Positions 1 to 21,928 of a stretch of 21,928 nucleotides of DNA are shown piece by piece. Source of the stretch: an uncultured archaeon. Lineage in GTDB: Archaea > Asgardarchaeota > Lokiarchaeia > Sigyniarchaeales > SOKP01. The stretch covers positions 33,614-55,541 of the forward strand of contig CAZWEM010000027.1 of assembly GCA_964632315.1 (NCBI GenBank). Direction: 5' to 3'. Position numbers and translations under genes: made by a program. The first letter of the stretch is position 1. Every line of letters starts with the position of its first letter. Under the pieces are notes generated by a model that worked only from the letters and a program-made list of their open reading frames with translations, made no database searches and had not been told where the DNA came from.

Positions 1-137
1 GGAGGAACAGTTACTTTTAAATTAGAATAAAAACCTTTCTGAATCATTCTTGAGATATTTGGAAGTTTATTTTGTTTAATTAAAGGTAAAATTTGTTCAA
101 AAGAACCTCCATCTATTCCTAATATGATATTTTTCAA
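1..137 (-). CDS. AlkP-superfamily (COG3379-like, nucleotide pyrophosphatase/phosphodiesterase-type) protein, N-terminal part; runs off the left edge
   Basis: Not in the ORF track. My translation of the minus strand from TTG at 137 gives MKNIILGIDGGSFEQILPLIKQNKLPNISRMIQKGFYSNLKVTVP(P). This aligns with the N-terminus of ORF 2658..3956 (MNIVIGIDGGSF...TPNFKRLIENGFSANLRVTNPP). SD-like GGGGA lies just upstream. Confidence 0.9.
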   Translation of the reverse strand, partial: MKNIILGIDGGSFEQILPLIKQNKLPNISRMIQKGFYSNLKVTVP

Positions 138-196
138 TATGATCCCCTTTAGATGCTAGATTTTAAAAAATAATAAAACTTGTAAATTATAAGATA

Positions 197-1348
197 TTAA
201 TGTGCCTCAATACCTAATTGCTCAGTATGATCTTTAAAATATCGCACCCCTTCTTGAATGATATCTAAAATTGTTTTGGTAGGTCTCCAACCTATCTGGT
301 TGACTATTTTATCATTTTTACCAATTAATAAGGGAACTTCACTTGGGCGCAATCGTTCTGGATCCACATAGACAGCAGTATCGAGATTATAAATTTTCTT
401 AGCTAATTTAACATAATTAGCTACTGTAATCCCTTTACCCGAACATACATTGTATGGTTCTCCAAATTTCTTACTTTCACTAACTAAAATATAAGCATTT
501 ACGGTATCTTTAACATGAGTGAAATCTCTTATTGCATTTGGGTTTCCAACAACTATCTTATCCGATTTACCTAGTAAGACTTCTACTATTTGTCTATGGA
601 CAACACTTGTAACAAATTGAATTCCCCGCCTAGGACCCTCATGGTTAAACCCGCGTGTTATGATTGAGGGTACTCCATAAGAATTATGATATAGCCAAGC
701 GATTTGCTCGGTAGAAACTTTAGTTATTCCATATATACTACGTGGACGGAAAGGATTTCTTTTCAATTCTTCCGAAATAGGTACTTCTGACGGGTCTACC
801 AACCCATACTGTTCACTACTACAAGCCACTTGTATGCTCTCTAATTCACTTCCAAACTTCCGAGCAGCTTCAAATATTTTTATCGTGCCTACAATGTTAT
901 TAGTAATGACTCTTGCAGGTTCTCTAAATGAAGTAGGAACAAATGATTCGGCTGCTAGGTGAAATACTGCGTGAGGTTTAATATTTTCAAAAATTTCATT
1001 AATTCTTTCGGAACTGGTGATATCAGCTTCATGTAAGTGAATATGACCTCTAAGATGTTCAATGTTTTCGTGCATGGGAACGGCATGGCGCCGTATTGTT
1101 CCGTGAACTTCACATCCTAAGTCAATTAATTGTTCTGCTAGATGACTTCCGGCAAATCCACTAATCCCAGTTATTAAAACTCTTTTTTCTTCCCATTTTT
1201 TCTTATTTGGCATAACCGAATCCGTGCGTTTAAATTTCTCTAGATAAGAATCAATATTTTCTGGAGTGATTATATATCCAGATCTCTCCAACTCTTCAAC
1301 TCTGGGATTTTCTTCCAAAACTTCTGCAATAGGAATTAGTTCTTTCAT
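197..1348 (-). CDS. gmd: GDP-mannose 4,6-dehydratase-like extended SDR with ~50-aa N-terminal extension
   Basis: GISGFAG Rossmann motif, RR after beta2, HLAAESFVPTSF, SSE catalytic segment, YGITK (YxxxK), NHEGPRRG..FVT, GNPNAIRDF, LRPSEV. Confidence 0.82.
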   Translation of the reverse strand: MKELIPIAEVLEENPRVEELERSGYIITPENIDSYLEKFKRTDSVMPNKKKWEEKRVLITGISGFAGSHLAEQLIDLGCEVHGTIRRHAVPMHENIEHLRGHIHLHEADITSSERINEIFENIKPHAVFHLAAESFVPTSFREPARVITNNIVGTIKIFEAARKFGSELESIQVACSSEQYGLVDPSEVPISEELKRNPFRPRSIYGITKVSTEQIAWLYHNSYGVPSIITRGFNHEGPRRGIQFVTSVVHRQIVEVLLGKSDKIVVGNPNAIRDFTHVKDTVNAYILVSESKKFGEPYNVCSGKGITVANYVKLAKKIYNLDTAVYVDPERLRPSEVPLLIGKNDKIVNQIGWRPTKTILDIIQEGVRYFKDHTEQLGIEAH

Positions 1349-1507
1349 ATTTGTATTTGATAAATCCTCAATCTGATTTTAATTTATTTATTAATAAAAG
1401 TCGCGGATTTTAATAAGTTTTGAATTGATGATTAAAGAGATTAAAATTAACACTATAAGAGAGATTCAAAATTATTATAAGCTAATTATGATTTTAACAT
1501 ATGGAAT

Positions 1508-2572
1508 ATGATTAAGATCCGTACTTTAATTGGACGTAAACTTAATTATGTCAATGGGATTCTAAGGAGACAAATCGAATTAGATCGTTATTTACATACA
1601 CTTGAGGAGGTTCAACTCGAATATCTCTACTATGAAGCACCATTAAATCCTATCGATTTTATCTCAAAAAGATACGTTTTATTTCCATATTATAGTATCC
1701 GTAATATGAATGAAAAAAATGCAGTAAATCATATCACTTTTCAATATCTTGGAGATCTAGGGCATTTTCTGAATAGAAATAACACCATTGTCACGTGTCA
1801 TGATATTTCTACTTTTTTGGAAAAATCTAGTTTTCGAAGTCCATTTTTCGTAAAAGCATATTCAAGAGAAGGGTTAAAAAAATGCAGATATATCATCGCT
1901 ATATCAGAATTCACTAAACAAGAACTCATCTCAAAATTAGGAATTAGAGAGGAGAAAATCATAGTTATTAAAAATGGCATGAATCAAGGGATCTTTAAAC
2001 CAATAAAAAATGAAGATCTTAAATCCATTACTCCCCTATACCCAGAATTCAAGAAGATTTTACATGTGGGTACCGAAATTGATCGGAAGAATTTCCTAAC
2101 TTTATTAAAGGCATTTTATCTTCTTAAAAAAAAGGGTTACAAGATAAAACTTATACGAGTTGGAAAACCATCTTTTAAAGGTGTAATTAAGCAATTAGGG
2201 TTAGAAAAAGATGTACATTATCTCGCCAATATCAGCAATGAAAGATTAAATGAAATATATAATTTATGTGATCTTTTTGTATTTCCATCATTTTATGAAG
2301 GGTGGGGTGCTCCTGGCTTAGAAGCTGCCTCCGCAGGCACTCCAGTAATATGTAGCGATATTCCAATTTTCAGGGAAGTATTTCAAGATTTTCCAATATT
2401 TTTTCCCCCTAAAGACTATAAAGAATTAGTTAATATTATAAAAGACACGCTTAATGATGATTATACTATGAGCAAGATGAGAGAGAGGGGATTAAATGTT
2501 GTTAAAAAATATTCCTGGAAAGAATCTTCAATTAAATATCTCAAGTTAGTTCAAAAAGTGATTAATGATTAA
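1508..2572 (+). CDS. GT4 family glycosyltransferase (GT-B fold)
   Basis: TCHD, AISEFTK, RKN, FVFPSFYEGWGAPGLEA (EX7E motif), PVICSDIP. Confidence 0.92.
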   Translation: MIKIRTLIGRKLNYVNGILRRQIELDRYLHTLEEVQLEYLYYEAPLNPIDFISKRYVLFPYYSIRNMNEKNAVNHITFQYLGDLGHFLNRNNTIVTCHDISTFLEKSSFRSPFFVKAYSREGLKKCRYIIAISEFTKQELISKLGIREEKIIVIKNGMNQGIFKPIKNEDLKSITPLYPEFKKILHVGTEIDRKNFLTLLKAFYLLKKKGYKIKLIRVGKPSFKGVIKQLGLEKDVHYLANISNERLNEIYNLCDLFVFPSFYEGWGAPGLEAASAGTPVICSDIPIFREVFQDFPIFFPPKDYKELVNIIKDTLNDDYTMSKMRERGLNVVKKYSWKESSIKYLKLVQKVIND

Positions 2573-2657
2573 TTAACGGTTTATGAACGTGAAAATATAT
2601 TTTGGTTCATAATTTTTAATAATTATTAATTCACGAAAAAATAGATGGAGATATTTT

Positions 2658-3956
2658 TTGAATATTGTTATAGGTATTGACGGGGGAAGTTTTAAGCATC
2701 TCAATATTGTGTTGCAAAGAGGATTAACACCTAATTTTAAGCGATTAATTGAAAATGGATTTTCTGCTAATCTTAGAGTGACCAATCCTCCAATTACTAT
2801 CCCATCGTGGCCCTGCACATTCTCAGGATTAACTCCTGAAGATCTAGGGTTCTATTATTTTACTCATCCTGATAAAGGCTTATTTAATTCCTCATATTGG
2901 AGAAATAAGTCGATTTTTTCACTAATCAACGAAAAATCTTTTATAATGAATGTCCCAGGAACATTCCCCTCTTGGAAAGTTAACGGAGAAATGATAACTG
3001 GTATGCTTTCTCCATCCATTAGTTGTTTTCCTTCAGAACTTAAACTCTCAATTCAAAAAAATTGGATTATAGATGCTGACAATGTTCCAGAATCCTTTTT
3101 TGCATTTAAGCAAAAATCCTCACTATTTCTAGAGAAAATGAAGGAAGATTTCAAATTTTTAACGTATGTAATAAGAATTCCAGATAATTTAACTCACCGT
3201 TCACATGGGGGAAAAGAAAAAACTTTAAGCTTAATCTATCAAGTATATTTAAAAATTGACAAGTTTCTTGGTAAAATTCTTGAGAATGAACAAGTTGATA
3301 ATATAATTATCGTTAGTGATCACGGTCTGAAACACTATTCTAAAGGATTTTATATCCGAAGATGGTTAGAGAAAAAAGGGATATTATTTATTAATACCCC
3401 AAAACCTAATAAACTGTTAAATGTACTACTAAAATCGTTTGACTTCATCAGGTTGTTTGTTAATAGCAGTTATTTAAAAAAATATTTTAACAAATTTTTA
3501 CATCTGAAGATTATAAAGTCTAAAATAAAGATTCCCCAACATTCTATAATGAAGATTGATCGAAATATAACACGTGTTAAAAATTTTTGTTCTAATATTG
3601 GAGGAATTATCTTGATTGGAAAGGATAAACAAAAAAATGGAATTTTATACAAGGAATTACTAAAGTCTCACTATGTAGATAACGTGATCAGGTCAACCTC
3701 TGAAGATTTTCCTGATTTCATTGTTTCTCTTAAGAAAGATTATTATTTCTGTGAGGAATCTTCCCTATATATAAAGAGAAGGAGAGATATCATTGATCAT
3801 AGCAATAAAGGACTATTTATTGCATATGGAAAAAATATTAAATCCGGGAAAGAGGATTTCGTTTCTTATCAAAATGTAGCTCCAACTTTATTAAAATTGT
3901 TAAACATCGCCAAACCAGACTACATGAAAGGAGAAGCTTTGGATATCATTAATTAG
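2658..3956 (+). CDS. AlkP-superfamily COG3379-like protein (predicted Thr nucleophile)
   Basis: GIDG metal-ligand Asp, PPITIPSW nucleophile motif, NVPGTFP, DNLTH, SDHG, C-terminal DH and VAPTLL..MKG. TTG start with GGAG upstream. No signal peptide evident. Confidence 0.88.
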   Translation: MNIVIGIDGGSFKHLNIVLQRGLTPNFKRLIENGFSANLRVTNPPITIPSWPCTFSGLTPEDLGFYYFTHPDKGLFNSSYWRNKSIFSLINEKSFIMNVPGTFPSWKVNGEMITGMLSPSISCFPSELKLSIQKNWIIDADNVPESFFAFKQKSSLFLEKMKEDFKFLTYVIRIPDNLTHRSHGGKEKTLSLIYQVYLKIDKFLGKILENEQVDNIIIVSDHGLKHYSKGFYIRRWLEKKGILFINTPKPNKLLNVLLKSFDFIRLFVNSSYLKKYFNKFLHLKIIKSKIKIPQHSIMKIDRNITRVKNFCSNIGGIILIGKDKQKNGILYKELLKSHYVDNVIRSTSEDFPDFIVSLKKDYYFCEESSLYIKRRRDIIDHSNKGLFIAYGKNIKSGKEDFVSYQNVAPTLLKLLNIAKPDYMKGEALDIIN

Positions 3957-3973: not shown

Positions 3974-5200
3974 TCAGAGGTTTTTTCTTTTTCTAAGTTT
4001 TTCTCCTCTGAAAATTAATAATTCAAAAGCTATGTAGAGGTGAACAAAAGCTTCTACATAGATATAAAACAGTATCTTGACAAAAAATAAGATATTCACT
4101 GATATTTGAAACTCCTTTTCCACGGCCTTATTAAAAAAAATTAACCTTCTAATTTTAAGGAGGAAAGAACTAATAAAAATAACAATACCTAAAGAGACAA
4201 ACCCAAAATTTACAAATATTAGGAAGGGATAAATCAATAAATATGCTCCTAAAATTGTTACGATAATTACCTTTAAGATCGTTTTTTTAAGATTAGTTTC
4301 AAATGAGTAAATTCGTGCATTTTCATTCCATCGGATTTTTTGCTTTACCCAAGATCTAATAGTATCTGGTATAACACTGTAAATACCCGCTCGATAATTA
4401 GGTAATCTAAAAATTTTAAATCCTTTTGAAATGATATCATGCCCCCGTGAGCTATCCTCTGCCCAATTTCTATTTGTATTAAATTGACCAACTGCTTTTA
4501 TCACTTTATATGATACTACAGTACTAGATCCTCCTATTGATTTTCCTTTGTATAGACTATATTTATTTCTAAAAAAATAGTAACGATTAAATTTGTGATA
4601 TTTAATAAGATCTTTATCTTTTTGATAATCTAACGGCCTGTGACCCGCTACGACGACATCTTCTCCATTATTGACAATAGGGTAAATCATTCTTAATAAT
4701 ATTTCATCAGTGAAAAGAACGTCAGCATCAACCATAAACACTAACCCTTCAGTGAGGTAACCTAAGCAATCATTTAATGCAGCTATCTTTCCTCGTCCAG
4801 TCTTTTGAATCAAAATCAGAAATACTTTGCTTTCTTTAAACTTGTTAGCTATTCGGATAGTCTCCTCGCTACCACCCGCATTCACAATAACTCTAAGCTT
4901 AGGATAATTAAGTTCTGAGCAAGAGATTAAGGATTTCTCGAAATGTTCTCCTTCGTTCCAAGCGGGAATAAGAATATTAACTAAAGGGAGATCTTTTAAA
5001 TCTTGTAGTCTTATTGTTTTAGGTCCCTGATATTGCTTCAAAGGTTTTAAATATCTTCTGTCTCTTAAGAAAATTAGCACTATATGGATAATTATAATAC
5101 TAGGAATCATAATGATTAAAAATTCAATTGAATTTAGAAACTTCCAGATCTCGTTAACCCAAAAATATAATGAATCAACAATTTCCATATCAACACTCAT
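3974..5200 (-). CDS. Membrane-bound GT2 glycosyltransferase with processive-type signature
   Basis: N-terminal TM, ILIPAWNE, GKIAALN, DAD, ED, QKIRW (QxxRW), several C-terminal hydrophobic helices. Confidence 0.88.
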   Translation of the reverse strand: MSVDMEIVDSLYFWVNEIWKFLNSIEFLIIMIPSIIIIHIVLIFLRDRRYLKPLKQYQGPKTIRLQDLKDLPLVNILIPAWNEGEHFEKSLISCSELNYPKLRVIVNAGGSEETIRIANKFKESKVFLILIQKTGRGKIAALNDCLGYLTEGLVFMVDADVLFTDEILLRMIYPIVNNGEDVVVAGHRPLDYQKDKDLIKYHKFNRYYFFRNKYSLYKGKSIGGSSTVVSYKVIKAVGQFNTNRNWAEDSSRGHDIISKGFKIFRLPNYRAGIYSVIPDTIRSWVKQKIRWNENARIYSFETNLKKTILKVIIVTILGAYLLIYPFLIFVNFGFVSLGIVIFISSFLLKIRRLIFFNKAVEKEFQISVNILFFVKILFYIYVEAFVHLYIAFELLIFRGEKLRKRKNL

Positions 5201-5373: not shown

Positions 5374-6621
5374 ATGAAACCTAGAAATGTTATCTTAGGG
5401 ATCGATGGCATTCCTTATGAATTGATGAAAAATCTCTCTGATAAGGATATTATGCCGAATTTTAAAGAGTTGTGTAAAAATTACATATTTCTTCGATTAA
5501 AATCTTCAATTCCTCATATCTCATCCGTGTCTTGGAGTTCAATTATCACTGGCAAGAATCCAGGTGAGCATGGTATTTTTGGGTTCACAGACATTATCAG
5601 AAACACTTACTCACTGAGTTTTCCAAATTTCAACACCTTAAAATGCAAGCCCTTTTGGCATAATAAGCCATCTCAAAGACACATAATCTTAAACGTTCCT
5701 TCTACATATCCAGCAAAAGAACTGAACGGCATTCATATTGCAGGTTTTGTCGCCTTGGATTTAAAAAAAGCAACTTATCCCATGGAATATGTTGAATTTT
5801 TGAAAAACTTAAAATATGAAATTGATATTGATACCAGTTTAGCTCATGAACAATCTCAAGAATTATTATTTAACGAATTAAGTCGTGTGTTATCTATTAG
5901 AAAAAAAACATATCAAAGCTTATGGAATGAATTTAAATGGGATAATTTTATGGTCGTCATTACTAGTACCGACAGGTTTGGCCATTTCTTATGGAATACA
6001 TACGAGAATGAAAATCATGAAAATCATGATAGATGTTTATCTTTTTTTAGAGAAGTAGACGATTTTATCGGAGATATTTACAGTAAATTAGGTGAAAATG
6101 ATACTTTTATAATTTTATCAGATCATGGCATGGAAAGTGTTAATGTAAATTTTAACCTAAACACCTTTTTAGAACAAGAAGGATATCTAAAATTAGGTTC
6201 AGAGGGCAAAAATTACAATCGAATATTGAAAGAAACAAAAGCTTTTGTGTTAGATCCGGGTAGGGTTTACTTAAACCGAAGTAAAAGATATCCAAATGGA
6301 AGTGTTAGTGAGTCGGAAGGAAAATCAATTCTTGATGGTTTAAAGAATTCCTTGCTTGACTTGAAATATGAAGGAAAAAAGGTTATAAAGAAGATTTATG
6401 AAAAAGAAAAGATATACCATGGTCCTTATGTAAATCTTGCTCCCGATTTAGTAATTCATGAAGAATCTGGTTATCAACCAAAAGGTAATATTGGAAAGAT
6501 AAATTTATTTGAAAAGGATAATTTTAGTGGCATGCATAATGCTAATGCATTTATTCTAATAAATAAGGATATTGATATTGAATATCCTTCTGTAGAAAAT
6601 ATAATTGAGTTTATGGTTTGA
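5374..6621 (+). CDS. AlkP-superfamily COG3379-like protein (predicted Ser nucleophile)
   Basis: GIDG, SSIPHISSVSWSSIITGKNPGEHGIFGF, NVPSTYP, DRFGH, SDHG, APDLV, SGMH. Its stop overlaps the TTG of the next gene (TTGA at 6618-6621). Confidence 0.9.
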   Translation: MKPRNVILGIDGIPYELMKNLSDKDIMPNFKELCKNYIFLRLKSSIPHISSVSWSSIITGKNPGEHGIFGFTDIIRNTYSLSFPNFNTLKCKPFWHNKPSQRHIILNVPSTYPAKELNGIHIAGFVALDLKKATYPMEYVEFLKNLKYEIDIDTSLAHEQSQELLFNELSRVLSIRKKTYQSLWNEFKWDNFMVVITSTDRFGHFLWNTYENENHENHDRCLSFFREVDDFIGDIYSKLGENDTFIILSDHGMESVNVNFNLNTFLEQEGYLKLGSEGKNYNRILKETKAFVLDPGRVYLNRSKRYPNGSVSESEGKSILDGLKNSLLDLKYEGKKVIKKIYEKEKIYHGPYVNLAPDLVIHEESGYQPKGNIGKINLFEKDNFSGMHNANAFILINKDIDIEYPSVENIIEFMV

Positions 6622-8144: not shown

Positions 8145-8234
8145 TTTTCTTCAATCCCCCCAGAACCCTTAATTTGTTCTTAGATTAGAAAATAAAAAAC
8201 TCTAAAATTTAGTATCAATTAAATTTAATAACTC

Positions 8235-8546
8235 ATGGAAGTGACTGATAAAACCTTTGAAAAGGAGATCCTTCTTTCTAAGAAACCAGTTCTTATTGAA
8301 TATTGGGCTTCATGGTGTGTACCATGTCAGATGATGGATTACGTTTTAAAAGAATTAGAAGTAGATTATGGAGATAAGCTCAAAATCGCCAAACTAAATA
8401 TCGACCGAAATCGTAAAACACCAAGAAAATTCGAACTTACCGGTGTTCCGACGGTCATGACGTTTAAAGGTGGTCATGTCATTGAAACCAGAGTTGGAGC
8501 ACAATCTAAAAAGAATCTTATTCAAATGATCGAAAGGGTATTATAA
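8235..8546 (+). CDS. trxA: Thioredoxin
   Basis: 103 aa, PVLIEYWASWCVPC, GVPT cis-Pro motif, VGA. 1-nt TAATG overlap with the next gene. Confidence 0.93.
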   Translation: MEVTDKTFEKEILLSKKPVLIEYWASWCVPCQMMDYVLKELEVDYGDKLKIAKLNIDRNRKTPRKFELTGVPTVMTFKGGHVIETRVGAQSKKNLIQMIERVL

Positions 8547-10696: not shown

Positions 10697-10697
10697 T

Positions 10698-14761: not shown

Positions 14762-17700
14762 TTGGTAAGTGTTATTTTTGCTTTTATCTACTTTACCTTT
14801 TTAATTCAAAGCTATATCATTCCTAACGCTTATAATATTCCAATTGTAGTGTTTATTGGATATTCAATAATAATAGGTCTTTATTTTTTTTTCTTTATTC
14901 TCAAAGAACGTGATTTATCAAAGAGTTACCAAATCAAGTTTGTCAGTGAGGATTTGTTTAAGATTACCCTTATTATACTTATGGTAATAACATACTTCAT
15001 TCCTCCAATATCTTTCTCAGATGTTATAGTCGATTGGGGTGAAGTTGGATTTTTAAATTACATTAGAAGCATAACTTTGCTTCTCGGATGCTTATACATT
15101 CCTGGTTCAAGTCTCTATAATTTATTCCTTAGTAAAATTGACATTCCAAGCAAATTGAATGTTGAGCCATTTTTAATTAAAATAACCTTTTACCCTCTTT
15201 TGTCTCTTTCCTTAATAGGGACTTCTACTCTTATTTTTGAAAAATTAGGATTACAGAGAGATTATTTCACTTATCCTCTTTTCTCTATTATTTTAATCCT
15301 ATATTTTATAGAGTACTTTTTAAGAAAAAGATCCTCTGTTTCCACTAAGTTTAAAAAAATATTAAATTTGAATATATCAAAATCTACAATAGTTGTTCTC
15401 TTTCTCTGTCTTTCAGTTATCATTATTGGATTGGGCTTTTTTATAGTCGCCCCATATGGACTCCGAGAAGATCCACATAGAGGTATAATGTATGCTCAAC
15501 TTGTAGGTTTAAAGGATACGCCTTCATATGGTGTGTATTGTATCTTCTGGGGTTATATTTCTTTTGGTTTAAGCGAATTAAGTGGATTACCAGCTATTAA
15601 TGTCAATGCAATACTTTTTCCTTTATTATATCTCTTCATTTCAAGTCTTTATATCTTTTACAAAGCCTTAATGAATAAAAATATACATACACGAACTGCT
15701 ATTTTTGCATTACTATTGTTTGTAACTTTTTCTGAATTTTCTAATTTTATTGATAGCGAAACCGAATTAATTAATATTACTTACTTGTTTATCGATACCT
15801 TATTTATGCTCACGTTTAAAGGAATAGCGTTCTTTTCATTTTCCGTCTCAATCACATTATTTACTCTCCTTTTTAAGACACAAGAGGAAAGAGATTCTAA
15901 ATTCAATCCAAAACAAATTGATTCAATTCATTCAAAAAACGAAAGAAATGCAGAAATTATATTGATATTCGCGGGAAGCTGGTTTCTAATACAAAGTTTC
16001 TTATTATACATTTTTCCTGTTTTAATAGCTTTTATTTTCATGATAATTTATTCGATTTTTTCTAGTAAAAAGGAAAAGAACTTCAATTTTACATCTTATA
16101 GCGTTGTTAGTTTTATATTAATATTCACATTATTCGATATCCTATCGAATTTCTTCTATAGCAATACAATACAAGGGATTTTGGCAACCTTTTTTGGAAA
16201 TTTATATCCATTTACTTATTCAGATAATATTAAAACCATATTTTTTTATTCATTCTTATTGATTTTGGTAATCATATGGTTAGGTACATCAAAGCTATAT
16301 GTGAAGATTTCGAAACATCTCTTTAGAGTTTCCGAAAAAAAGAGGGATTATCGTTTCATCATTATAGTATTGATGATTATTTTTATAGGCTTTTTTATTT
16401 TAGAAATAATTTTGAACCTGATGTTCACCAAAAGAAGACTATACTTGTTTACTTATTCATTGCATTTAATATTTGTAAATCTTGGGTTTTTAGGGATTAT
16501 GGTCTTTCTTTTTATGCCATTGATTTTTAAACATGAAGAGAAGCTCTTTTCAATCCTATTTTCTTGGTTTATCATTATTTTTCTCATTTCTTCAGTATTG
16601 CTAGTTAAATGGATAGTAAGGCCTTATCCATATCTTACTATGTTTTCGGATTTTTTTATTATAGAATACTGGTTTAGTCGTTATAGCTTTTATAGTATTA
16701 TCCCACTATCTATTCTAGGGGCTATATTAATCGTAAATTTACAAAAGATTAAATTTAGAATAAAGATGTCTAAAAAAGTCAAAAATATTTTCCAATACCT
16801 CATAATTTCAACGTTAATTATTTTTTTAGTTTCAAATAATATTCAATCAGCTATAGACAAATATAATACGAAACAATTAAATGATAATGAAGCTAAGATG
16901 ATAGGATGGATTTCTGATAATATTCCCTTTAAAGAATCGATATTGGTTGATAATAGCATTTATTACACGTATGTTCGAGATTTCTTGTTCAATAAAAGAG
17001 CAAGATTAGACTTAGAAGTAGATAATATCCTAAACAATTATGAATTTCTTACAGTAATGAATGAAAAAGATCATAATTGTTCAATAATGCTATACGAAAA
17101 ATTAGGGGAAAATGTGAATGTCTTGGAATTTCAAGATAATAACAATAGCGGAAAAGTTTCGAGCTCTGTTGCTTTTGAACAATCTTACCAATCAGGGTGG
17201 ATAAGTTTTGATTATATGACTTCCAATAGCACAAAAAATTTTAATATTAATTTATATGCAGCTTTATATGCTCAAGTTGCAATTCAGTTATCTATTTCAT
17301 CGAAAGAATTACGTTATTTTAATGGAACGAATTATCAAAAAATTGCAAATATTGATAAGAATAAATGGTATTCATTCAAAATTTTTTTTGAAACATCAGA
17401 TTTAAATAACTATAATCTAACAAAATATCAATGGAAGGTTTTAATCAATGGTACTGATTATGGAGTTTATCCTTTTCTAAATAGTATTCCTAATATTTTT
17501 TTGTTTCAAATTAGTACTTCTAACAGTGACTATAATTGGTCCAATTTTCTCACTAATTTTCATTTCTCTTGGAATGTTCCAAGCATTTTTGAATATAATA
17601 TCATTAAATACCCATTGATAATAAAAGAGTTACGAAAAATGAATATCAATTATTTCATTTTATCAGAAAAAGACTCTCTAATTAAACAGAGAATAAAGGA

Positions 17701-17791
17701 AGACATTGATATTCAAAATGAATTAATCCCTCATTTTTATAATCGAAGCATTTTTCACCAAAATGGAATAACTATATATTCTACTTCATAA
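14762..17791 (+). CDS. Large polytopic membrane protein, putative GT-C-like glycosyltransferase with extracellular C-terminal domain
   Basis: Many TM segments over aa 1-~690, acidic ED in an external loop (REDPH), WFSRY near the last TMs. The soluble tail has 'AKMIGWISDNIP..SILVD ... LRKMNINYFIL', resembling GT-C/STT3-like C-terminal domains. No WWDYG motif. Confidence 0.6.
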   Translation: MVSVIFAFIYFTFLIQSYIIPNAYNIPIVVFIGYSIIIGLYFFFFILKERDLSKSYQIKFVSEDLFKITLIILMVITYFIPPISFSDVIVDWGEVGFLNYIRSITLLLGCLYIPGSSLYNLFLSKIDIPSKLNVEPFLIKITFYPLLSLSLIGTSTLIFEKLGLQRDYFTYPLFSIILILYFIEYFLRKRSSVSTKFKKILNLNISKSTIVVLFLCLSVIIIGLGFFIVAPYGLREDPHRGIMYAQLVGLKDTPSYGVYCIFWGYISFGLSELSGLPAINVNAILFPLLYLFISSLYIFYKALMNKNIHTRTAIFALLLFVTFSEFSNFIDSETELINITYLFIDTLFMLTFKGIAFFSFSVSITLFTLLFKTQEERDSKFNPKQIDSIHSKNERNAEIILIFAGSWFLIQSFLLYIFPVLIAFIFMIIYSIFSSKKEKNFNFTSYSVVSFILIFTLFDILSNFFYSNTIQGILATFFGNLYPFTYSDNIKTIFFYSFLLILVIIWLGTSKLYVKISKHLFRVSEKKRDYRFIIIVLMIIFIGFFILEIILNLMFTKRRLYLFTYSLHLIFVNLGFLGIMVFLFMPLIFKHEEKLFSILFSWFIIIFLISSVLLVKWIVRPYPYLTMFSDFFIIEYWFSRYSFYSIIPLSILGAILIVNLQKIKFRIKMSKKVKNIFQYLIISTLIIFLVSNNIQSAIDKYNTKQLNDNEAKMIGWISDNIPFKESILVDNSIYYTYVRDFLFNKRARLDLEVDNILNNYEFLTVMNEKDHNCSIMLYEKLGENVNVLEFQDNNNSGKVSSSVAFEQSYQSGWISFDYMTSNSTKNFNINLYAALYAQVAIQLSISSKELRYFNGTNYQKIANIDKNKWYSFKIFFETSDLNNYNLTKYQWKVLINGTDYGVYPFLNSIPNIFLFQISTSNSDYNWSNFLTNFHFSWNVPSIFEYNIIKYPLIIKELRKMNINYFILSEKDSLIKQRIKEDIDIQNELIPHFYNRSIFHQNGITIYSTS

Positions 17792-17865: not shown

Positions 17866-18894
17866 ATGGAATCAGTTCTAATAACAGGGGCAGATGGATT
17901 CATTGGATCTCATCTTACGGATGAATACCTCAATCATAACTACAATGTAATTGCATTAAAAAGGCCTAAAGTACCTATAAAGAATTTAAATCATTTAATA
18001 AAAAATTCAACAAGTATAAAAGAAATAATTCAAGCTAGAAGATTTAAAGGAATTCCATCTATAAATCCGGATCTTACTCTTCTAGAATGTGATTTAAATG
18101 ATAAAAATTACCTTGAAAGTATCATATCACACTTTAAACCACAAATATTACTCCATTTTGGAGCGCAGTCTTTAGTGCTACGATCATGGGAAGCGCCTCA
18201 TGAGACTTTTCGAACAAATGTGATTGGGACTATAAACATTTTTGAAGCGGTTAAAAAACATAATCTTCAATCTAGAATTATAGTCGCTTGTTCTAGTGCA
18301 GAATATGGGACGACAACAAAACTGAATCGACCTTTGAAAGAAGAAGATCCTTTATTGGCCATACATCCTTATGGAATAAGTAAAGTTGCAGTAGAGTTGT
18401 TATCCCGTCAATATTACATTAACTTTGGTATTGATTCAATAAACCTTCGACTTTTTAATCAGACTGGACCCCGAAAAACAGACGATGCATGTTCAGATTT
18501 TGTTCGAGAAATCGTGAAAATAGAATTAGGATTAAAAAAACCAGAAATTCAAGTGGGAAATTTAAATACGTATCGAGATATCACAGGCATTCAAGATACA
18601 ATTCAAGCAATTTCTTTAGCGGTTAGCAAGGGTACATCTGGTGAGACATACAATGTATGCTCAGGTCGTAAAATTAAGATAAGGGATGTTTTAAATATAG
18701 TTTTAAGTTTTAGTAGTAAAAAGATAAAAATCAAAGAACAATTCAAAGAAAAACTGAGAAAAACTGATGAAGATATTATCATTGGGGATAATGCTAAAAT
18801 CAAAACAGAATTGGGGTGGAAGATTTCAATCCCTTTAGAAACAGTATTAAAACAGATGTATGACTATTGGATGGAAACCTATAAAAATTCATAA
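17866..18894 (+). CDS. Gmd/Rmd-family extended SDR, most like GDP-4-keto-6-deoxy-D-mannose reductase (Rmd)
   Basis: GADGFIG, AQSLVLRSW, TNVIGT, SSAEYG, PYGISK, FNQTGP, SDFVREIVKIE, VGNLNTYRD, YNVCSG. Confidence 0.75.
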   Translation: MESVLITGADGFIGSHLTDEYLNHNYNVIALKRPKVPIKNLNHLIKNSTSIKEIIQARRFKGIPSINPDLTLLECDLNDKNYLESIISHFKPQILLHFGAQSLVLRSWEAPHETFRTNVIGTINIFEAVKKHNLQSRIIVACSSAEYGTTTKLNRPLKEEDPLLAIHPYGISKVAVELLSRQYYINFGIDSINLRLFNQTGPRKTDDACSDFVREIVKIELGLKKPEIQVGNLNTYRDITGIQDTIQAISLAVSKGTSGETYNVCSGRKIKIRDVLNIVLSFSSKKIKIKEQFKEKLRKTDEDIIIGDNAKIKTELGWKISIPLETVLKQMYDYWMETYKNS

Positions 18895-18975: not shown

Positions 18976-19215
18976 ATGTCAGAAGAAGAACATAAAGTTG
19001 AATATACCACGGTTTCTATACCAAAACCACTAGCAGATAAGGTAAAAGAACGAATGAAGGGTACTGGCTTTTCTTCAGTTTCAAGTTATGTTACTTACGT
19101 ATTAAGGCAAGTACTTTCTTCAATTGAATCCGAGGAAAAAGAAAGAGAAGCTTTTACTGAAGAAGAAGAAGAGAAAGTAAAACAAAGACTTCGAGATCTT
19201 GGCTATATCGATTAA
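18976..19215 (+). CDS. CopG/ribbon-helix-helix protein with acidic C-terminal RLRDLGY tail
   Basis: YTTVSIPKPL beta-strand, helix A, GFSSVSSYVTYVLR helix B, then EEEEEKVKQRLRDLGYID. Confidence 0.88.
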   Translation: MSEEEHKVEYTTVSIPKPLADKVKERMKGTGFSSVSSYVTYVLRQVLSSIESEEKEREAFTEEEEEKVKQRLRDLGYID

Positions 19216-19256: not shown

Positions 19257-20405
19257 ATGATTCAACCACATGGTGGAAGATTAGTCAATAAAGAATTACC
19301 TAAAATGGAAAAAGAAAGGATTTTAGGTGAATCAGATGAGTTTTATAAAAAAACTGTTAATCCCCAGACGTTAAAGGTAATAAAGAACATTGCTTATGGG
19401 GTTTTTAGCCCATTAGAAGGATTCATGAATGAAAATGATTTTCATTACGTCCTTGACGAAATGTATCTTCAAAATAATTTAGCGTGGCCAATACCGATTG
19501 TACTTGATGCTGATAGAGAAGAAACCCAACAATATCAAGTGGATGATCGGATCATTTTAACCAATCAATCTGGAATTCCCCTTGCTATCATGTCAATAGA
19601 GGATATATATAGTTATGAAAAGCAAGAATTCGCAGAAAAAGTATATGGAACGTTAGATCAGAATCATCCTGGAGTACAAAGTGTTTACGATCTTAAAGAA
19701 ATACTAATTGGGGGAGAAATATTTTTATTAAATGAACCTAAAGCTGTTTTTCCAAGTTTAGATCTAAAGCCTTTAGAAACACGAGTGCTATTCAAACAAA
19801 AAAAATGGGATAAAGTGGTCGCATTTCAAACTCGGAATCCACCTCATTTAGGACATGAATACGTCCAAAAAGCTGGCCTTACTTATGTCGATGGTTTATT
19901 CATTAACCCTGTAATCGGAAAGAAAAAAAGCGGGGATTTCAAGGATGAAGTTATAATAGAATCATATCAAGCATTAATTAAAGAATATTATCCTCAAGAT
20001 AGGGTAGTATTAAGCACTTTTGAAACAGAAATGCGATATGCTGGACCAAAGGAAGCAATATTTCATGCAATAGCTCGAAAAAATTTTGGATGTGATCATA
20101 TCATTATCGGTCGAGATCACGCCGGAGTAGGAAATTATTATGGACCATATGATGCGCATTACATCTTTGATAAATTTCCTGACCTTGGAATTGAGCCAAT
20201 TAAATTTCGATCTTTTTCAAAATGTAGCAAGTGTAACGCGGTTGTTAATGATAAAATTTGCCCACACCCACCTGAAATGCAAAACTATTTTGCTGGGAGG
20301 GATATTCGAGCCGCTCTTAGTGCAGGAAAACCACCCGACACAGAAGTAATGCGTCCTGAAGTAGCAGAAGTCATTTTAAAGTATAAAAATCCTTTTGTTG
20401 ATTAA
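19257..20405 (+). CDS. sat: Sulfate adenylyltransferase (ATP sulfurylase)
   Basis: PHGG, FSPLEGFM, WPIPI, FQTRNPPHLGH, MRYAGPKEA, GRDHAG, CxxC...CPH zinc site. Confidence 0.97.
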   Translation: MIQPHGGRLVNKELPKMEKERILGESDEFYKKTVNPQTLKVIKNIAYGVFSPLEGFMNENDFHYVLDEMYLQNNLAWPIPIVLDADREETQQYQVDDRIILTNQSGIPLAIMSIEDIYSYEKQEFAEKVYGTLDQNHPGVQSVYDLKEILIGGEIFLLNEPKAVFPSLDLKPLETRVLFKQKKWDKVVAFQTRNPPHLGHEYVQKAGLTYVDGLFINPVIGKKKSGDFKDEVIIESYQALIKEYYPQDRVVLSTFETEMRYAGPKEAIFHAIARKNFGCDHIIIGRDHAGVGNYYGPYDAHYIFDKFPDLGIEPIKFRSFSKCSKCNAVVNDKICPHPPEMQNYFAGRDIRAALSAGKPPDTEVMRPEVAEVILKYKNPFVD

Positions 20406-20434
20406 AACAAGATAATAGGTTTGAGGATGTTTAA

Positions 20435-21823
20435 TTGAGTAATAATAAAAAAGTCTTACTTATTGGGTTAGATTGTGCTACACCACGCACCCTTTTTCAA
20501 GATTTCATAGAAGAATGTCCAAATATAAAAAAGTTGATGGAAAACGGTGTTCATGGAAAACTAAGAAGTAGTGATCCTCCCATTACTGTTCCCGCTTGGA
20601 TGGTAATGGCAACAGGCAAAAAACCAGGCACGTTAGGAGTATATGGATTTCGCCATAGAAAAGGTAATTCTTATAATGATTTTTGGGTGGCTAATTCTCA
20701 GACAATTAAAGAAGAAAAAGTCTGGGACATTATTAGCAAGGAGGGTTTGAAATCAATTCTTTTAGGAATTCCTCCGACTTTTCCGCCTCAACCGATAAAT
20801 GGAAATTTAATTACAGGATTTATTACTCCCGATGCACGATCAAATTTCACCTATCCTCCAGAATTGAAGGAGGAGATTATGAATAACGTGACGGATGATT
20901 ACACTTTCGATGTTTTATTCAGAACCGAAAAGAAAGAAGATTTACTCGTAAATCTATATAAGATGACTAAATTACATTTTGCTACCGTTAAATATTTAAT
21001 ACAGAATAAGGAATGGAATTATTGTCAATTTGTTATCATTGGTTTGGACAGAATACATCATGGTTTTTGGAAATATTATGATAAATTTCACCATAAACAT
21101 GAACCAGGAAACATGTTCGAAAGTGTGATTAAAAATTTTTATAAATTTCTTGATAAGCAAATTGGTGAACTTTTAGAACTAATTGATGATAACACTACAG
21201 TCATAATCGCTTCTGATCACGGTGCTAAGGCAATGAAGGGATGTTTATGCGTGAATATGGCTTTACAAGAATTAGGTTTACTTAAATTCAAAGAAAAAGC
21301 TAAATCAGGAACTCGTTTAGAAGATGCTAAAATTGATTGGAATAAAACCTATGCTTGGGGGTGGGGGGGATATTATGCTCGCATCTTTCTCAACTTGAAA
21401 GGTCGTGAGGATCTTGGAATAATCGAACCAGAAGAATATGAATCATGGAGATCTAAAGTACAAGAGTTATTGAAAAGCGTTCCTGATGATAAGGGAAAGC
21501 CAATGAACACAATCATTCATAAACCAGAAGATTTGTTCCAAAATGTTCGGGGTGATGCACCTGATTTGATGGTTTATTTTGATGATTTGAATTGGAGGTC
21601 GGCGGGTACAGTTGGATATAAATCAATGTATTTAGATGAAAATGATACTGGTCCAGATGATGCTGTTCACGATTATCATGGGATTTTTATCATATCAGAT
21701 CCGAAAAAGAAGATAGGTAAGAATCTTGGGACTAAGAATATATTAGATATCGCCCCAACCATTTTGAATATTTTTGGAGTCGAAATTCCCGCCGATATGG
21801 AAGGTAAATTAATAGAATTTTGA
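20435..21823 (+). CDS. AlkP-superfamily COG3379-like protein between sat and cysC (predicted Thr nucleophile)
   Basis: GLDC, SSDPPITVPAW..MATG, YGFRHR, DRIHHGFW, SDHG, WGWGGYYARIF, ENDTGPDDAVH, DIAPTIL..MEG. TTG start with GAGG upstream. Confidence 0.9.
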   Translation: MSNNKKVLLIGLDCATPRTLFQDFIEECPNIKKLMENGVHGKLRSSDPPITVPAWMVMATGKKPGTLGVYGFRHRKGNSYNDFWVANSQTIKEEKVWDIISKEGLKSILLGIPPTFPPQPINGNLITGFITPDARSNFTYPPELKEEIMNNVTDDYTFDVLFRTEKKEDLLVNLYKMTKLHFATVKYLIQNKEWNYCQFVIIGLDRIHHGFWKYYDKFHHKHEPGNMFESVIKNFYKFLDKQIGELLELIDDNTTVIIASDHGAKAMKGCLCVNMALQELGLLKFKEKAKSGTRLEDAKIDWNKTYAWGWGGYYARIFLNLKGREDLGIIEPEEYESWRSKVQELLKSVPDDKGKPMNTIIHKPEDLFQNVRGDAPDLMVYFDDLNWRSAGTVGYKSMYLDENDTGPDDAVHDYHGIFIISDPKKKIGKNLGTKNILDIAPTILNIFGVEIPADMEGKLIEF

Positions 21824-21856
21824 AAATATAATCAATAAGAAATCAAAAGAATAAAA

Positions 21857-21928
21857 ATGGAGCATAAAGGATTTACATTATGGTTTACTGGATTAGCTTG
21901 TTCTGGTAAAACAGTATTAGCTAATGCT
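21857..21928 (+). CDS. cysC: Adenylyl-sulfate (APS) kinase, N-terminal 24 aa; runs off the right edge
   Basis: Not in the ORF track. Translation MEHKGFTLWFTGLACSGKTVLANA matches the CysC N-terminal WxTGLxxSGKT P-loop and lies downstream of sat. Confidence 0.88.
   Translation, partial: MEHKGFTLWFTGLACSGKTVLANA

Follow-up and report, generated by a model that had tools for sequence, protein, structure and literature searches.

A known PAPS cassette and a putative sulfonated-sugar cassette, each with an NPP-clade AlkP-fold enzyme, in a surface-glycan locus of a Promethearchaeota (Asgard) archaeon

What do four look-alike AlkP-fold enzymes do in a glycan locus that also encodes PAPS synthesis? 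This question is raised by a 21,928-nt stretch of DNA from a Promethearchaeota (Asgard) archaeon, the whole of which is called the window here. The initial annotation proposed that all four paralogs may be APS/PAPS-dependent sulfotransferases, each acting on a different sugar position. Our analysis partly supported this reading. The link between the AlkP fold and sulfate activation was confirmed, and the paralogs fell into three different classes that are not interchangeable new sulfotransferases.

The glycan locus and its AlkP-fold paralogs

The window is a surface-glycan assembly locus of the cytoplasmic side, containing GT2 and GT4 transferases, SDR sugar-nucleotide enzymes, a methyltransferase, a Wzx flippase and a large membrane protein. 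It holds two separate sulfur-input cassettes, A and B, and a soluble NPP-clade AlkP-fold enzyme is central to each. Each sulfur cassette has a phosphodiesterase-like enzyme at its core, so the four look-alikes are of three different kinds. Cassette A, for the PAPS donor, has already been published, and cassette B, a putative sulfonated-sugar cassette, is a second unit. The predicted features are as follows.

3-137, minus strand: fourth AlkP-fold paralog (2658-type), N-terminus of a 374-aa ORF that exits the window leftwards
197-1348, minus strand: SDR, NDP-sugar 4,6-dehydratase-like (PF16363, 274 bits; under the NCBIfam equivalog cut-offs)
1508-2572, plus strand: GT4 glycosyltransferase (PF00534, 106 bits)
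2658-3956, plus strand: AlkP-fold paralog, Thr nucleophile (PF01663, 93 bits)
3974-5200, minus strand: GT2 glycosyltransferase (PF00535, 56 bits)
5374-6621, plus strand: AlkP-fold paralog with invariant Ser50 nucleophile (AlkP_5374), opens cassette B (PF01663, 135 bits)
6627-8144, plus strand: UDP-sulfoquinovose (SQ)-synthase-like SDR (NF041015, 417 bits)
8235-8546, plus strand: thioredoxin, closes cassette B (PF00085, 90 bits)
8546-9487, plus strand: SDR epimerase/dehydratase (PF01370, 175 bits)
9443-10366, minus strand: GT2 glycosyltransferase (PF00535, 99 bits)
10698-12308, minus strand: Wzx-like flippase, about 15 hydrophobic segments (PF01943, 31 bits)
12667-13308, minus strand: SAM-dependent methyltransferase (PF13489, 66 bits)
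13498-14655, plus strand: GT4 glycosyltransferase (PF00534, 129 bits)
14762-17791, plus strand: 1009-aa polytopic membrane protein, about 17 hydrophobic segments; zero matches in Pfam and NCBIfam searches
17866-18894, plus strand: SDR, NDP-sugar dehydratase/epimerase (PF16363, 218 bits)
18976-19215, plus strand: RHH/CopG-like protein, 79 aa, C-terminus ...RLRDLGYID, at the matching position in relatives' cassettes
19257-20405, plus strand: ATP sulfurylase Sat (PF01747, 282 bits; PF14306, 164 bits; NF003166, 487 bits)
20435-21823, plus strand: NPP-clade AlkP-fold enzyme of cassette A, invariant Thr51 (PF01663, 163 bits)
21857-21928, plus strand: APS kinase gene cysC, first 24 codons with the P-loop, ending at the edge of contig C27

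The RHH, SQ-synthase-like and thioredoxin genes were not mentioned in the initial annotation. Of the three paralogs that it listed in addition to the sat-linked one, those at 2658-3956 and 5374-6621 were recovered with PF01663, and the one at the left edge proved to be a minus-strand gene of which the window holds the N-terminus.

Alignments showed the active-site motifs GxD, DxxxH, SDHG and a late His in the paralogs. The nucleophile is a Thr or Ser within PPIT(V/I)P(A/S)W or PHISSVSW, and the sulfatase motif CxPxR was not present, as had been stated before. TM segments and signal-like N-termini were likewise absent from all four. The paralogs are cytoplasmic members of the NPP clade of the AlkP fold, with pairwise identities of 22-31%. 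The enzymes of cassettes A and B form sister families that align end to end (hhalign E 2.7e-60). Close homologues carry the JGI label 'predicted AlkP superfamily phosphohydrolase/phosphomutase', which is the wording of COG3379.

Cassette A and PAPS supply

The reported arrangement of sat, a COG3379-like gene and cysC was present, with cysC truncated. The CysC fragment was 87.5% identical to the CysC of a related locus (L025); the remainder of the gene is absent from the assembly, and relatives carry full-length CysC (177-181 aa) at the equivalent position. The predicted model of the AlkP enzyme (pLDDT 94) gave ENPP1/3 and Xac NPP as its best structural matches, and the enzyme has all two-metal ligands and four invariant basic residues.

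The linkage of this AlkP clade to sat and cysC is near-absolute in archaea and bacteria and far above chance. Of about 50 Asgard genomes with the orthologue, 47 have it on the strand of sat and no more than 1.8 kb away. Among 80 loci spread over many phyla of archaea and bacteria (AlkP identity 47-74%), CysC is directly downstream in 70/79, Sat upstream in 60/73 and the RHH gene present in 49/62. The Thermococcus sp. gene (L110) is 52.5% identical to that of the window, and its order, RHH-Sat-DHH-AlkP-CysC-TauE, matches the published Thermococcales cassette (TON_1707 to TON_1704, PYCH_17520 to 17560; PMC4463584, PMC8268124). Cassette A is a portable PAPS-supply unit known from Thermococcales.

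In this unit, Sat forms APS and PPi, and CysC converts APS to PAPS. The AlkP enzyme most likely destroys PPi where it is formed, which would drive the unfavourable Sat reaction forward. This role is proposed because the Thermococcus orthologue TON_1705 is listed as a pyrophosphatase (kcat 2.1 per s, Km 18.8 µM; PMC9653972 Table 1), and the identity of about 50% across domains is consistent with a small invariant substrate. However, the genome already encodes a family-I soluble pyrophosphatase and an H+-pyrophosphatase, and Ton1914, also of that Thermococcus, has a kcat about four orders of magnitude higher than TON_1705 (PMC9653972). The sister relationship of the two cassette enzymes also argues against this role, since a pyrophosphatase has no obvious use beside an SQ synthase.

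Cassette B and a putative sulfonated sugar

Cassette B (5374-8546) consists of AlkP_5374, the SQ-synthase-like gene and thioredoxin; a literature search did not find it described. The model of AlkP_5374 (pLDDT 93.4) matched PhnA (Z 29.1) and NPPs (Z about 26.5). The SQ-synthase-like gene starts 6 nt past the stop codon of AlkP_5374. Its product matches NF041015 over model positions 1-384 of 384 at a score below the 575-bit cut-off, and the SQD1-type motif YHxSK is invariant in the family. The N-terminal domain of about 80 aa, with invariant C11, C14, C28, C48 and C66 (the Cys5 domain), gave zero matches in a Pfam search.

Among 151 Asgard genomes, five have this long form of the SQ-synthase-like gene; they belong to three families. 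All five carry an AlkP_5374 orthologue (50-61% identity) directly upstream, all five encode sat, and no AlkP_5374 orthologue was found in the rest of the 151. AlkP_5374 accompanies only the long form with the Cys5 domain, never the short SQ-synthase form. In metagenomes, the orthologue lies directly upstream in 58 of 62 assessable loci, and the whole triad is found in 62 of 80, the remainder being mostly cut by contig ends; neighbouring genes are spaced by about -13 to +16 nt. Thioredoxin lies 3' of the SQ-synthase-like gene in L126-L128 and wherever a genome locus is not truncated by the end of its contig. This holds for family f16 too, where the flanking genes differ.

Complex prediction weakly supports a contact between AlkP_5374 and the SQ-synthase-like protein. 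Three runs gave ipSAE values of 0.60, 0.46 and 0.50 (median 0.50), against 0.00 for the best control, with at least 93% contact agreement and partner pLDDT of at least 90. Of 80 solved complexes, 58 attained the mark reached by this pair, as did 2 of 110 mismatched pairs, but just 7 of the 80 lay at ipSAE ≤0.60.

Cassette B would provide the glycan with a sulfonated nucleotide sugar. PAPS_reduct (CysH) was not found in the 99.5%-complete genome, and the same search was positive in 14 of 14 control genomes; we therefore infer that sulfite for the SQ-synthase-like enzyme most likely derives from the PAPS or APS of cassette A. AlkP_5374 would bind the sulfonucleotide, leaving the Cys5 domain and thioredoxin to perform the two-electron thiol chemistry that is the job of CysH elsewhere. 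Cassette B may in this way be a CysH-independent source of sulfite from PAPS. Against this route, the triad genomes in families f15 and f16 encode proteins of 520-670 aa with a PAPS_reduct domain. A further point against it is that, from the established enzymology of alkaline phosphatase and NPP, two-metal AlkP sites are good phosphoryl but poor sulfuryl catalysts.

Sulfotransferases, family-restricted paralogs and alternative readings

The two remaining paralogs belong to the 2658-type and would be family-restricted accessories to the glycan pathway. They are 37% identical over residues 134-431, and the nucleophile region of the left-edge copy is lost to an assembly gap (X run). Orthologues were found in nine of 151 Asgard genomes, all of the window's own family f1 and frequently in two copies, and the gene is syntenic in L126 and L133. 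One genome (G057, 91% complete) has two 2658-type genes, and sat was not found in it.

As initially described, no ORF in the window matched a sulfotransferase or PAPS_reduct family, and no canonical sulfotransferase was found on the examined 55.5-kb part of the contig. This lack of canonical sulfotransferases did not extend to the genome, which encodes three on contigs C9 and C17, and that of CysH did. Within the genus, 11 of 12 genomes have Sulfotransfer_3. Sister clusters hold AlkP genes and canonical sulfotransferases together, so neither kind replaces the other.

Our preferred explanation combines PAPS supply with PPi removal in cassette A, a sulfonated sugar from cassette B and accessory 2658-type paralogs; we favour it tentatively, at slightly less than even confidence. 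That all four paralogs are O-sulfotransferases, each working through a covalent sulfo-Thr or sulfo-Ser on one glycan position before flipping, appears quite improbable. AlkP-superfamily proteins do have such a precedent: Agl30 and Agl31 were identified in 2025 as N-glycan sulfotransferases of Halobacterium by deletion and heterologous expression (PMC11980604). Agl7, named in the initial annotation, is indeed needed for glycan sulfation in Haloferax (PMC3892788). The cytoplasmic location, the retained nucleophile and metal ligands, and the contig part free of canonical sulfotransferases also fit. In 9 of 80 cross-phylum loci, as in the Asgard loci L030 and L031, divergent extra PF01663 paralogs are found no more than 6 kb from the PAPS cassette. 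However, Agl30 and Agl31 are reported to be sulfatase-like, whereas the window paralogs have an NPP/PhnA-like predicted fold with a complete two-metal phosphoryl-type site. The paralogs occupy three unrelated conserved contexts: a published PAPS cassette (PMC4463584, PMC8268124, PMC9653972), a fixed SQ-synthase partnership and two family-restricted copies. The sat-linked paralog has an orthologue measured as a pyrophosphatase and is about 50% identical from Chloroflexota to Thermococcus, a conservation at odds with a variable glycan acceptor. The canonical sulfotransferases of the genome and sister clusters, and the 2658-type pair in G057, also weigh against it.

It is unlikely, but less so, that the cassette A enzyme alone is a non-canonical sulfotransferase that consumes PAPS, with pyrophosphatase activity as a side reaction. 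Its conserved acceptor could be a universal carrier or the ...LGY(I/L)(D/E) tail of the RHH protein, which 53 of 54 cassettes from archaea and bacteria retain. A DHH pAp phosphatase is part of many cassettes, so pAp must arise nearby, and a dedicated pyrophosphatase would be redundant beside the housekeeping ones. One locus (L104) encodes an AlkP-CysC fusion, and another (L043, RHH-Sat-DHH-small canonical sulfotransferase-CysC) is missing the AlkP gene; both count against the pyrophosphatase role, although the L043 replacement is a single anecdotal case. By our tally, Sulfotransfer_3 is unmatched in about 31 of the 51 Asgard genomes that bear the cassette. One complete genome with the cassette (G147, 100%) has zero matches to Sulfotransfer_1, _3 and _4 and no PAPS_reduct, the sulfotransferase search covering these three Pfam families only; G147 likewise counts against the pyrophosphatase role. 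However, the Km of TON_1705 and its kcat/Km of about 1e5 per M per s fit a native pyrophosphatase, and Sat-AlkP fusions of 863 aa in seven Chloroflexota loci implicate the PPi-forming step. We also consider it rather unlikely that the 2658-type paralogs and AlkP_5374 are unrelated to sulfur and serve sugar metabolism as ordinary NPP/PhnA-type phosphoryl enzymes, such as nucleotide-sugar pyrophosphatases, phospho-sugar or phospho-alcohol transferases, or phosphomutases. They share fold and active site with phosphodiesterases and phosphonoacetate hydrolase, the COG3379 name points the same way, and G057 carries 2658-type genes with sat undetected. ENPP3 binds UDP-GlcNAc (PDB 6f30, among the structural matches of the cassette A model), and the pyrophosphate link of UDP-sulfoquinovose is a possible target of cleavage or transfer. 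This reading leaves unexplained the restriction of AlkP_5374 to the Cys5-form synthase with thioredoxin, the sat gene in all triad genomes and the divergent paralogs that recur beside PAPS cassettes of unrelated phyla.

Gene content of the window and its source genome

The right end of the window (G000:C27:33614-55541, where G000 is the source genome and C27 its contig) coincides with the end of the contig. The assembly comprises 4.45 Mb in 119 contigs with 33% GC, and is 99.5% complete and 8.6% contaminated. Close homologues of the window genes were found in Promethearchaeota, Hod-, Heimdall-, Hermod- and Thorarchaeota MAGs, which places the source organism among the Asgard archaea. We mapped the genes by ORF calling and Pfam/NCBIfam scans, and all genes listed in the initial annotation were recovered.

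Genes of the window (position, strand, assignment). Assignments are based on ORF calling with Pfam/NCBIfam scans unless another source is given in parentheses.
3-137, minus, AlkP-fold gene, N-terminus only
197-1348, minus, SDR dehydratase
1508-2572, plus, GT4
2658-3956, plus, PF01663 protein, AlkP-fold paralog (Pfam)
3974-5200, minus, GT2
5374-6621, plus, PF01663 protein, designated AlkP_5374 (Pfam)
6627-8144, plus, UDP-sulfoquinovose-synthase-like protein (NCBIfam NF041015)
8235-8546, plus, thioredoxin
8546-9487, plus, SDR
9443-10366, minus, GT2
10698-12308, minus, Wzx-like flippase
12667-13308, minus, methyltransferase
13498-14655, plus, GT4
14762-17791, plus, 1009-aa membrane protein without a family match (Pfam/NCBIfam)
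17866-18894, plus, SDR
18976-19215, plus, 79-aa RHH protein
19257-20405, plus, sat
20435-21823, plus, PF01663 protein, sat-linked AlkP enzyme (Pfam)
21857-21928, plus, cysC, first 24 codons

The SQ-synthase-like gene, the thioredoxin gene and the RHH gene were absent from the initial annotation, and they change the reading of the locus. It combines a known PAPS cassette (RHH-Sat-AlkP-CysC), a sulfoquinovose cassette (AlkP_5374, SQ-synthase-like protein and thioredoxin) and two family-restricted AlkP-fold paralogs. The PAPS cassette is in a new host and lacks a DHH gene. No report of the sulfoquinovose cassette was found in the literature searched, which does not show that it is absent from print.

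The remainder of cysC was not found in the 119-contig genome by tblastn. The AlkP-fold paralog claimed for the left edge is present, but it lies on the minus strand and only its N-terminus is in the window. Its continuation on C27 to the left of the window (L010:937-2061) contains an N run (X in the translated sequence) in place of the nucleophile region, and the integrity of this fourth paralog cannot be judged for that reason. The 1009-aa membrane protein, encoded in the middle of the glycan locus, has about 17 hydrophobic segments; possible identities are a polymerase, a ligase or a membrane enzyme resembling oligosaccharyltransferases.

Family and fold of the AlkP-fold paralogs

The three complete paralogs matched PF01663 with 163 (20435-21823), 135 (5374-6621) and 93 bits (2658-3956) against a cut-off of 23. 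Scores against PF00884, the formylglycine sulfatase family, were 18.6-25.1 bits (cut-off 25), far below the PF01663 score each time. The motifs described earlier are real: GxD, a Thr/Ser nucleophile where sulfatases carry CxPxR, DxxxH, SDHG and a late His. The C/S-x-P-x-R motif is absent, as the arylsulfatase CAPSR aligns with TVPAW and the paralogs read TIPSW and SSVSW. The nucleophile and six metal ligands were invariant in the alignment of the sat-linked enzyme (D13, T51, D205, H209, D261, H262 and H412) and in that of AlkP_5374 orthologues (D11, S50, D200, H204, D250, H251 and H388). A hydrophobic N-terminus or TM segment was found in none of the four paralogs; for the three complete ones, the initial annotation had noted no obvious signal peptide. 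NCBIfam assigned no family to the paralogs, and the PDB sequence search returned marginal matches only, such as arylsulfatase 6HHM (E 0.0024).

The AlphaFold model of the sat-linked enzyme (pLDDT 94) was closest to ENPP1, ENPP3 and Xanthomonas NPP (TM 0.55-0.6, 12-16% identity). The best 50 Foldseek matches all belonged to the NPP clade (ENPP1, ENPP3, ENPP5-7, snake-venom PDE and Xac NPP), with no sulfatase among them. For the AlkP_5374 model (pLDDT 93.4), phosphonoacetate hydrolase PhnA gave Z 29.1 and NPPs gave Z of about 26.5. The window enzymes share with the NPP clade (ENPP1-7, Xanthomonas NPP and PhnA) a common fold (TM 0.55-0.6; Z 26-29) and an active site with a Thr or Ser nucleophile and all ligands for two metals, but they are only 12-18% identical, are cytoplasmic and contain large insertions. 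Based on PF01663, the modelled fold and these residues, the paralogs are assigned to the NPP/type I phosphodiesterase family and are candidate hydrolases of nucleotide phosphodiester or pyrophosphate bonds, the activity data on this point being the pyrophosphatase kinetics cited for TON_1705. To our knowledge, no characterised NPP has conserved genomic partners like those of the window enzymes.

Orthologues of the 2658-3956 protein (44-58% identity) were found only in the family of the window, in 9 of 151 Asgard genomes; many of these carry two copies, and the clusters are syntenic. This distribution is the pattern of a pathway-specific accessory enzyme. Within the family, 8 of the 9 genomes carrying the 2658-type gene also carry sat, compared with 17 of 26 overall (hypergeometric p of about 0.08, calculated by hand, on related genomes). 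A counter-example is G057, a 91% complete genome with two 2658-type copies and no sat detected.

The PAPS cassette and the role of its AlkP enzyme

We searched the 151 Asgard genomes with the sat-linked protein and with the ATP-sulfurylase family. The neighbourhood statistics proposed in the initial annotation bore out the linkage, as the orthologue of the sat-linked enzyme lies on the same strand as sat and within 1.8 kb of it in 47 of about 50 Asgard genomes with an orthologue. Of the others, two carry the orthologue on a small contig of its own, and in one no match to sat was obtained. The 20435-21823 protein is unusually conserved, with 67-90% identity across Asgard lineages, and the unit of the 79-aa ORF, sat, the PF01663 gene and cysC is kept in three unrelated Asgard contigs whose flanks differ.

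Species-representative genomes were scanned with an alignment of 17 orthologues of the sat-linked enzyme, giving at least 572 relatives. The best 80 of these (47-74% identity) are from Bathyarchaeia, Aminicenantes, Methanomethylicota, Eubacteriales, Archaeoglobaceae, Thermococcus, Paenibacillus, Nitrososphaerota, Zixibacteria, Methylomirabilota, Chloroflexota, Hadarchaeota, DPANN and others. Among these best 80, CysC is directly downstream of the AlkP gene in 70 of 79 loci, 60 of 73 have Sat upstream and 49 of 62 include an RHH gene. A DHH-family gene precedes the AlkP gene in only 11 of the 73 loci that could be assessed, most cassettes being without it. Sat and AlkP are fused into one ORF of 862 or 863 aa at seven Chloroflexota loci (L105, L116, L119, L121, L122, L123 and L125), and AlkP and CysC into one 646-aa ORF at a Nitrosopumilaceae locus (L104).

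A locus of Thermococcus sp. (L110) has the order RHH-Sat-DHH-AlkP-CysC-TauE, and its AlkP protein is 52.5% identical to 20435-21823 over the full length. This gene order, the identity and the published clusters indicate that 20435-21823 is an orthologue of the Thermococcales cassette gene. In T. onnurineus, the cluster encodes an APS kinase (TON_1704), a pyrophosphatase (TON_1705), a DHH pAp phosphatase (TON_1706) and an ATP sulfurylase (TON_1707). In P. yayanosii, PYCH_17520-17560 are copG, sat, a DHH pApase gene, a type I phosphodiesterase/nucleotide pyrophosphatase gene and cysC; the authors speculated that the NPP-type protein degrades PPi, and the published Thermococcales clusters have neither a sulfite-reducing pathway nor an identified sulfotransferase (PMC8268124). 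These clusters and the window have in common the order RHH, Sat, NPP-type gene and CysC on one strand. Unlike them, the window cassette has no DHH gene and forms one margin of a glycan locus, in an Asgard host. A DHH pAp phosphatase was absent from the window, and none was found in G000 by tblastn.

Several other features accompany these cassettes. The tail of the RHH protein, EEEEKVKxRL(R/K)xLGY(I/L)(D/E), is conserved in all but one of 54 cassette RHH proteins from archaea and bacteria (L046-L125); such strict conservation is unusual at the end of a small regulator. In many cases a gene for a TauE/DUF81-type anion permease adjoins the cassette (L025:7530-8324, L110, L035, L037, L039, L042 and L131); in G000 the closest copy (68% identity) is on another contig (G000:C7:64903-65574). 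Longer PF01663 paralogs of 519-657 aa, 23-36% identical to the reference paralogs, are repeatedly encoded within a few kb of PAPS cassettes, both in Asgard archaea and in bacteria unrelated to one another, Paenibacillus campi among them (L030:11704-15280 in G038, L031, L044, L063, L084, L088, L104, L113 and L115).

As the initial annotation had stated, no window ORF matched a P-loop sulfotransferase domain (PF00685, PF13469 or PF17784) or PAPS_reduct. The PAPS_reduct search was also negative in the rest of G000, yet positive in 14 of 14 control genomes. The genome-wide search that the initial annotation had proposed did find canonical sulfotransferases elsewhere in G000, though not beside the window. 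Contig C9 encodes a Sulfotransfer_3 protein (373 aa, 124 bits), and C17 encodes a 276-aa Sulfotransfer_3/1 protein and, in the adjoining gene, a 462-aa protein whose Sulfotransfer_4 domain (125 bits) is confined to the C-terminal half, the N-terminal half having no Pfam match. The two adjacent C17 genes occupy G000:C17:58326-60582 (L021:9327-11583, minus strand). Sulfotransfer_3 is present in 11 of 12 genomes of the genus, indicating that the G000 copies are native genes, not contaminants. In this organism, then, there are ordinary enzymes to use PAPS. Canonical small sulfotransferases adjoin AlkP genes in sister clusters (L126 in G144 and L027 in Thor) and in metagenome loci (L163, L192, L196 and L199), so that the two types coexist and do not replace each other.

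Removal of PPi is the role that we place first for the cassette enzyme, with a PAPS-using sulfotransferase as a serious rival. Sat is the PPi-forming enzyme, so the Sat-AlkP fusions point to PPi removal, and the cross-phylum conservation fits a small invariant substrate. In eukaryotes, sulfate-activating enzymes also occur as fusions with pyrophosphatase, which counts for the same role. Such fusions are alluded to in a review (PMC11210485). The Thermococcus orthologue TON_1705 has a measured activity, for which a published table gives a pH optimum of 9.5, kcat of 2.1 s−1, Km of 18.8 µM and kcat/Km of 0.11 × 10⁶ M−1 s−1 (PMC9653972). The pyrophosphatase role was measured in vitro only, for the Thermococcus protein, and is called "speculated" for the Pyrococcus one; the kcat, as cited there, is low. 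Also against PPi removal, G000 already encodes soluble and membrane pyrophosphatases.

The composition of other cassettes and genomes also speaks against PPi removal and favors the sulfotransferase reading. In an Asgard cassette without an AlkP gene (L043:5057-6686, on G041:C6), the order is RHH-Sat-DHH-195-aa canonical sulfotransferase-CysC; a small canonical sulfotransferase of this type was not found in G000 by tblastn. G147, a 100% complete, cassette-bearing genome of the same family, had no match to the three sulfotransferase families that made up this census and no PAPS_reduct, and by a hand tally about 31 of 51 cassette-bearing Asgard genomes had no Sulfotransfer_3 match. Moreover, the families of AlkP_5374 and of the PAPS-cassette enzyme align end to end (hhalign E 2.7e-60, 25% identity, 419 columns). 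This sister relation cuts both ways: the ligands are suggested to be related, so a role of the PAPS-cassette enzyme as nothing but a pyrophosphatase becomes weaker, and the case for sulfuryl handling stays alive.

A role as pAp phosphatase, analogous to CysQ, was rejected because 11 cassettes have both a DHH pAp phosphatase gene and the AlkP gene, and pApase activity has been measured for the DHH protein.

The sulfoquinovose triad and possible sulfuryl transfer

The stop codon of AlkP_5374 (6619-6621) is followed 6 nt on by the ATG of the SQ-synthase-like gene. The SQ-synthase-like protein gave 417 bits against NF041015 with all of model positions 1-384 aligned, which does not reach the equivalog cut-off of 575; matches in the Haloferax control genome were likewise only below the cut-off. 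T224, Y270, H271 and K274 (SDR Thr and YHxSK) are invariant in 28 sequences, and the Tyr-His-x-x-Lys motif is typical of SQD1. The protein resembles the UDP-sulfoquinovose synthases SQD1/SqdB/Agl3 in its full-length NCBIfam alignment, SDR Thr and YHxSK. It is unlike them in having an extra cysteine-rich N-terminal domain of about 80 aa, with five invariant cysteines and no Pfam match, and in always being accompanied by an AlkP-fold gene and thioredoxin. Archaeal N-glycans are known to include sulfoquinovose (PMC11407970).

The long form of the SQ synthase is present in 5 of 151 Asgard genomes from three families. An AlkP_5374 orthologue (50-61% identity) is directly upstream in all five and occurs nowhere else in the 151 genomes; sat is also present in all five. 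The short SQ synthase, which lacks the N-domain (36-37% identity), has no AlkP_5374-type neighbour and no thioredoxin partner. Thioredoxin follows the long SQ synthase at every Asgard locus uncut by a contig end, and is kept in the triad of family f16 though the surrounding genes are unrelated to those of the window. A metagenome scan gave at least 265 relatives of the long SQ synthase; among the best 80, the AlkP-synthase-thioredoxin order is complete in 62, most of the others being cut by contig ends. The intergenic gaps of the triad in metagenome loci are typically −13 to +16 nt. Locus L203 was considered as a case of a canonical sulfotransferase replacing AlkP_5374 and was rejected because a membrane-protein gene lies between them.

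Complex prediction for AlkP_5374 and the SQ-synthase-like protein weakly supports an association, with ipSAE of 0.60, 0.46 and 0.50 (median 0.50) compared with 0.00 for the best control. Of 80 solved complexes, 58 reach the ipSAE mark, as do 2 of 110 mismatches, but only 7 of the 80 solved complexes are at or below 0.60. At least 93% of contacts are common to the runs, with a partner pLDDT of 90 or more.

SQD1-type enzymes use sulfite, and G000 has no CysH; the most economical reading is that the sulfite source is PAPS or APS. We infer that the triad would draw sulfite from either of these and that its AlkP enzyme, cysteines and thioredoxin would together take the place of CysH. The triad shares with CysH and its thioredoxin a likely sulfonucleotide binder, conserved cysteines, thioredoxin and an adjoining sulfite consumer. 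It differs in that no PAPS_reduct domain is encoded in the window or genome and the proposed catalyst is of an unrelated fold. The resemblance to the CysH reaction would be one of function only.

The initial annotation had proposed that the AlkP paralogs are themselves APS/PAPS-dependent sulfotransferases. This interpretation is partly supported. Agl30 (VNG1056C) and Agl31 (VNG1057C) of Halobacterium salinarum, for which N-glycan sulfation was shown by deletion and heterologous expression (PMC11980604), are a published precedent for the general idea of a sulfotransferase of the AlkP superfamily; against the proposal, canonical sulfotransferases are present in the genome and coexist with AlkP genes. 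Agl31 is soluble, cytosolic and assigned to the arylsulfatase family, and the donor and mechanism are not addressed in that paper (PMC11980604). Agl30/31 and the window paralogs both belong to the AlkP superfamily and are encoded inside an archaeal glycan or N-glycosylation cluster, 2658-3956 and 5374-6621 lying among GT2, GT4, Wzx and SDR genes. Compared by description, however, Agl30/31 are sulfatase-like (closest structures 5G2U and 6HHM), whereas the window paralogs are PF01663 proteins closest to NPPs and PhnA. We know of no sulfuryl-handling chemistry in the NPP clade. No precedent beyond Agl30/31 was found in the literature searched, which does not show that there is none in print. The role of Agl7 (HVO_2046) of Haloferax volcanii in glycan sulfation was confirmed: sulfation of the first hexose in the low-salt tetrasaccharide depends on it, and deletion of Agl7 leads to a non-sulfated dolichol-phosphate-linked glycan (PMC3892788). 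The protein family or fold of Agl7 is not stated in the literature searched.

We consider it rather unlikely that both cassette enzymes handle sulfuryl groups. In such a scheme, the Ser50 enzyme AlkP_5374 would take the group from PAPS or APS and hand it to a cysteine of the five-cysteine domain, and thioredoxin would release sulfite into the SQ-synthase site, making the triad a CysH-independent, three-protein (P)APS reductase; the sat/cysC enzyme would be a PAPS sulfotransferase with pyrophosphatase activity as secondary, and the 2658-type proteins would be glycan O-sulfotransferases, in line with the initial annotation. For most archaea and many uncultured bacteria, little is known of the way in which surface glycans are sulfated or sulfonated, and Agl30/31 (2025), the sole archaeal sulfotransferases to have been identified, show an unexpected fold and act by a mechanism that is not known. 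An uncharacterised NPP-like enzyme sits exactly where sulfur enters glycan synthesis in two widespread, tightly conserved cassettes. Resolving its role would close a long-standing annotation gap, that of the "phosphodiesterase" in PAPS operons, or, if the scheme is true, would bring to light a new path by which organisms without CysH turn activated sulfate into sulfite and sulfo-sugars. The prediction for the Asgard cell surface is sulfoquinovose and possibly sulfate esters.

Anticorrelation of the triad with CysH across the triad genomes is mixed. PAPS_reduct is absent from G000 and G144, and families f15 and f16 encode atypical PAPS_reduct proteins (520-670 aa in G041, G058 and G048). Proteins of 650-670 aa with an N-terminal PAPS_reduct domain (about 150 bits) are encoded at G038:C1:1578916-1579443, G047:C72, G029:C6, G041:C5 and G058:C77; this Asgard type, of which G000 has none, is much longer than ordinary CysH.
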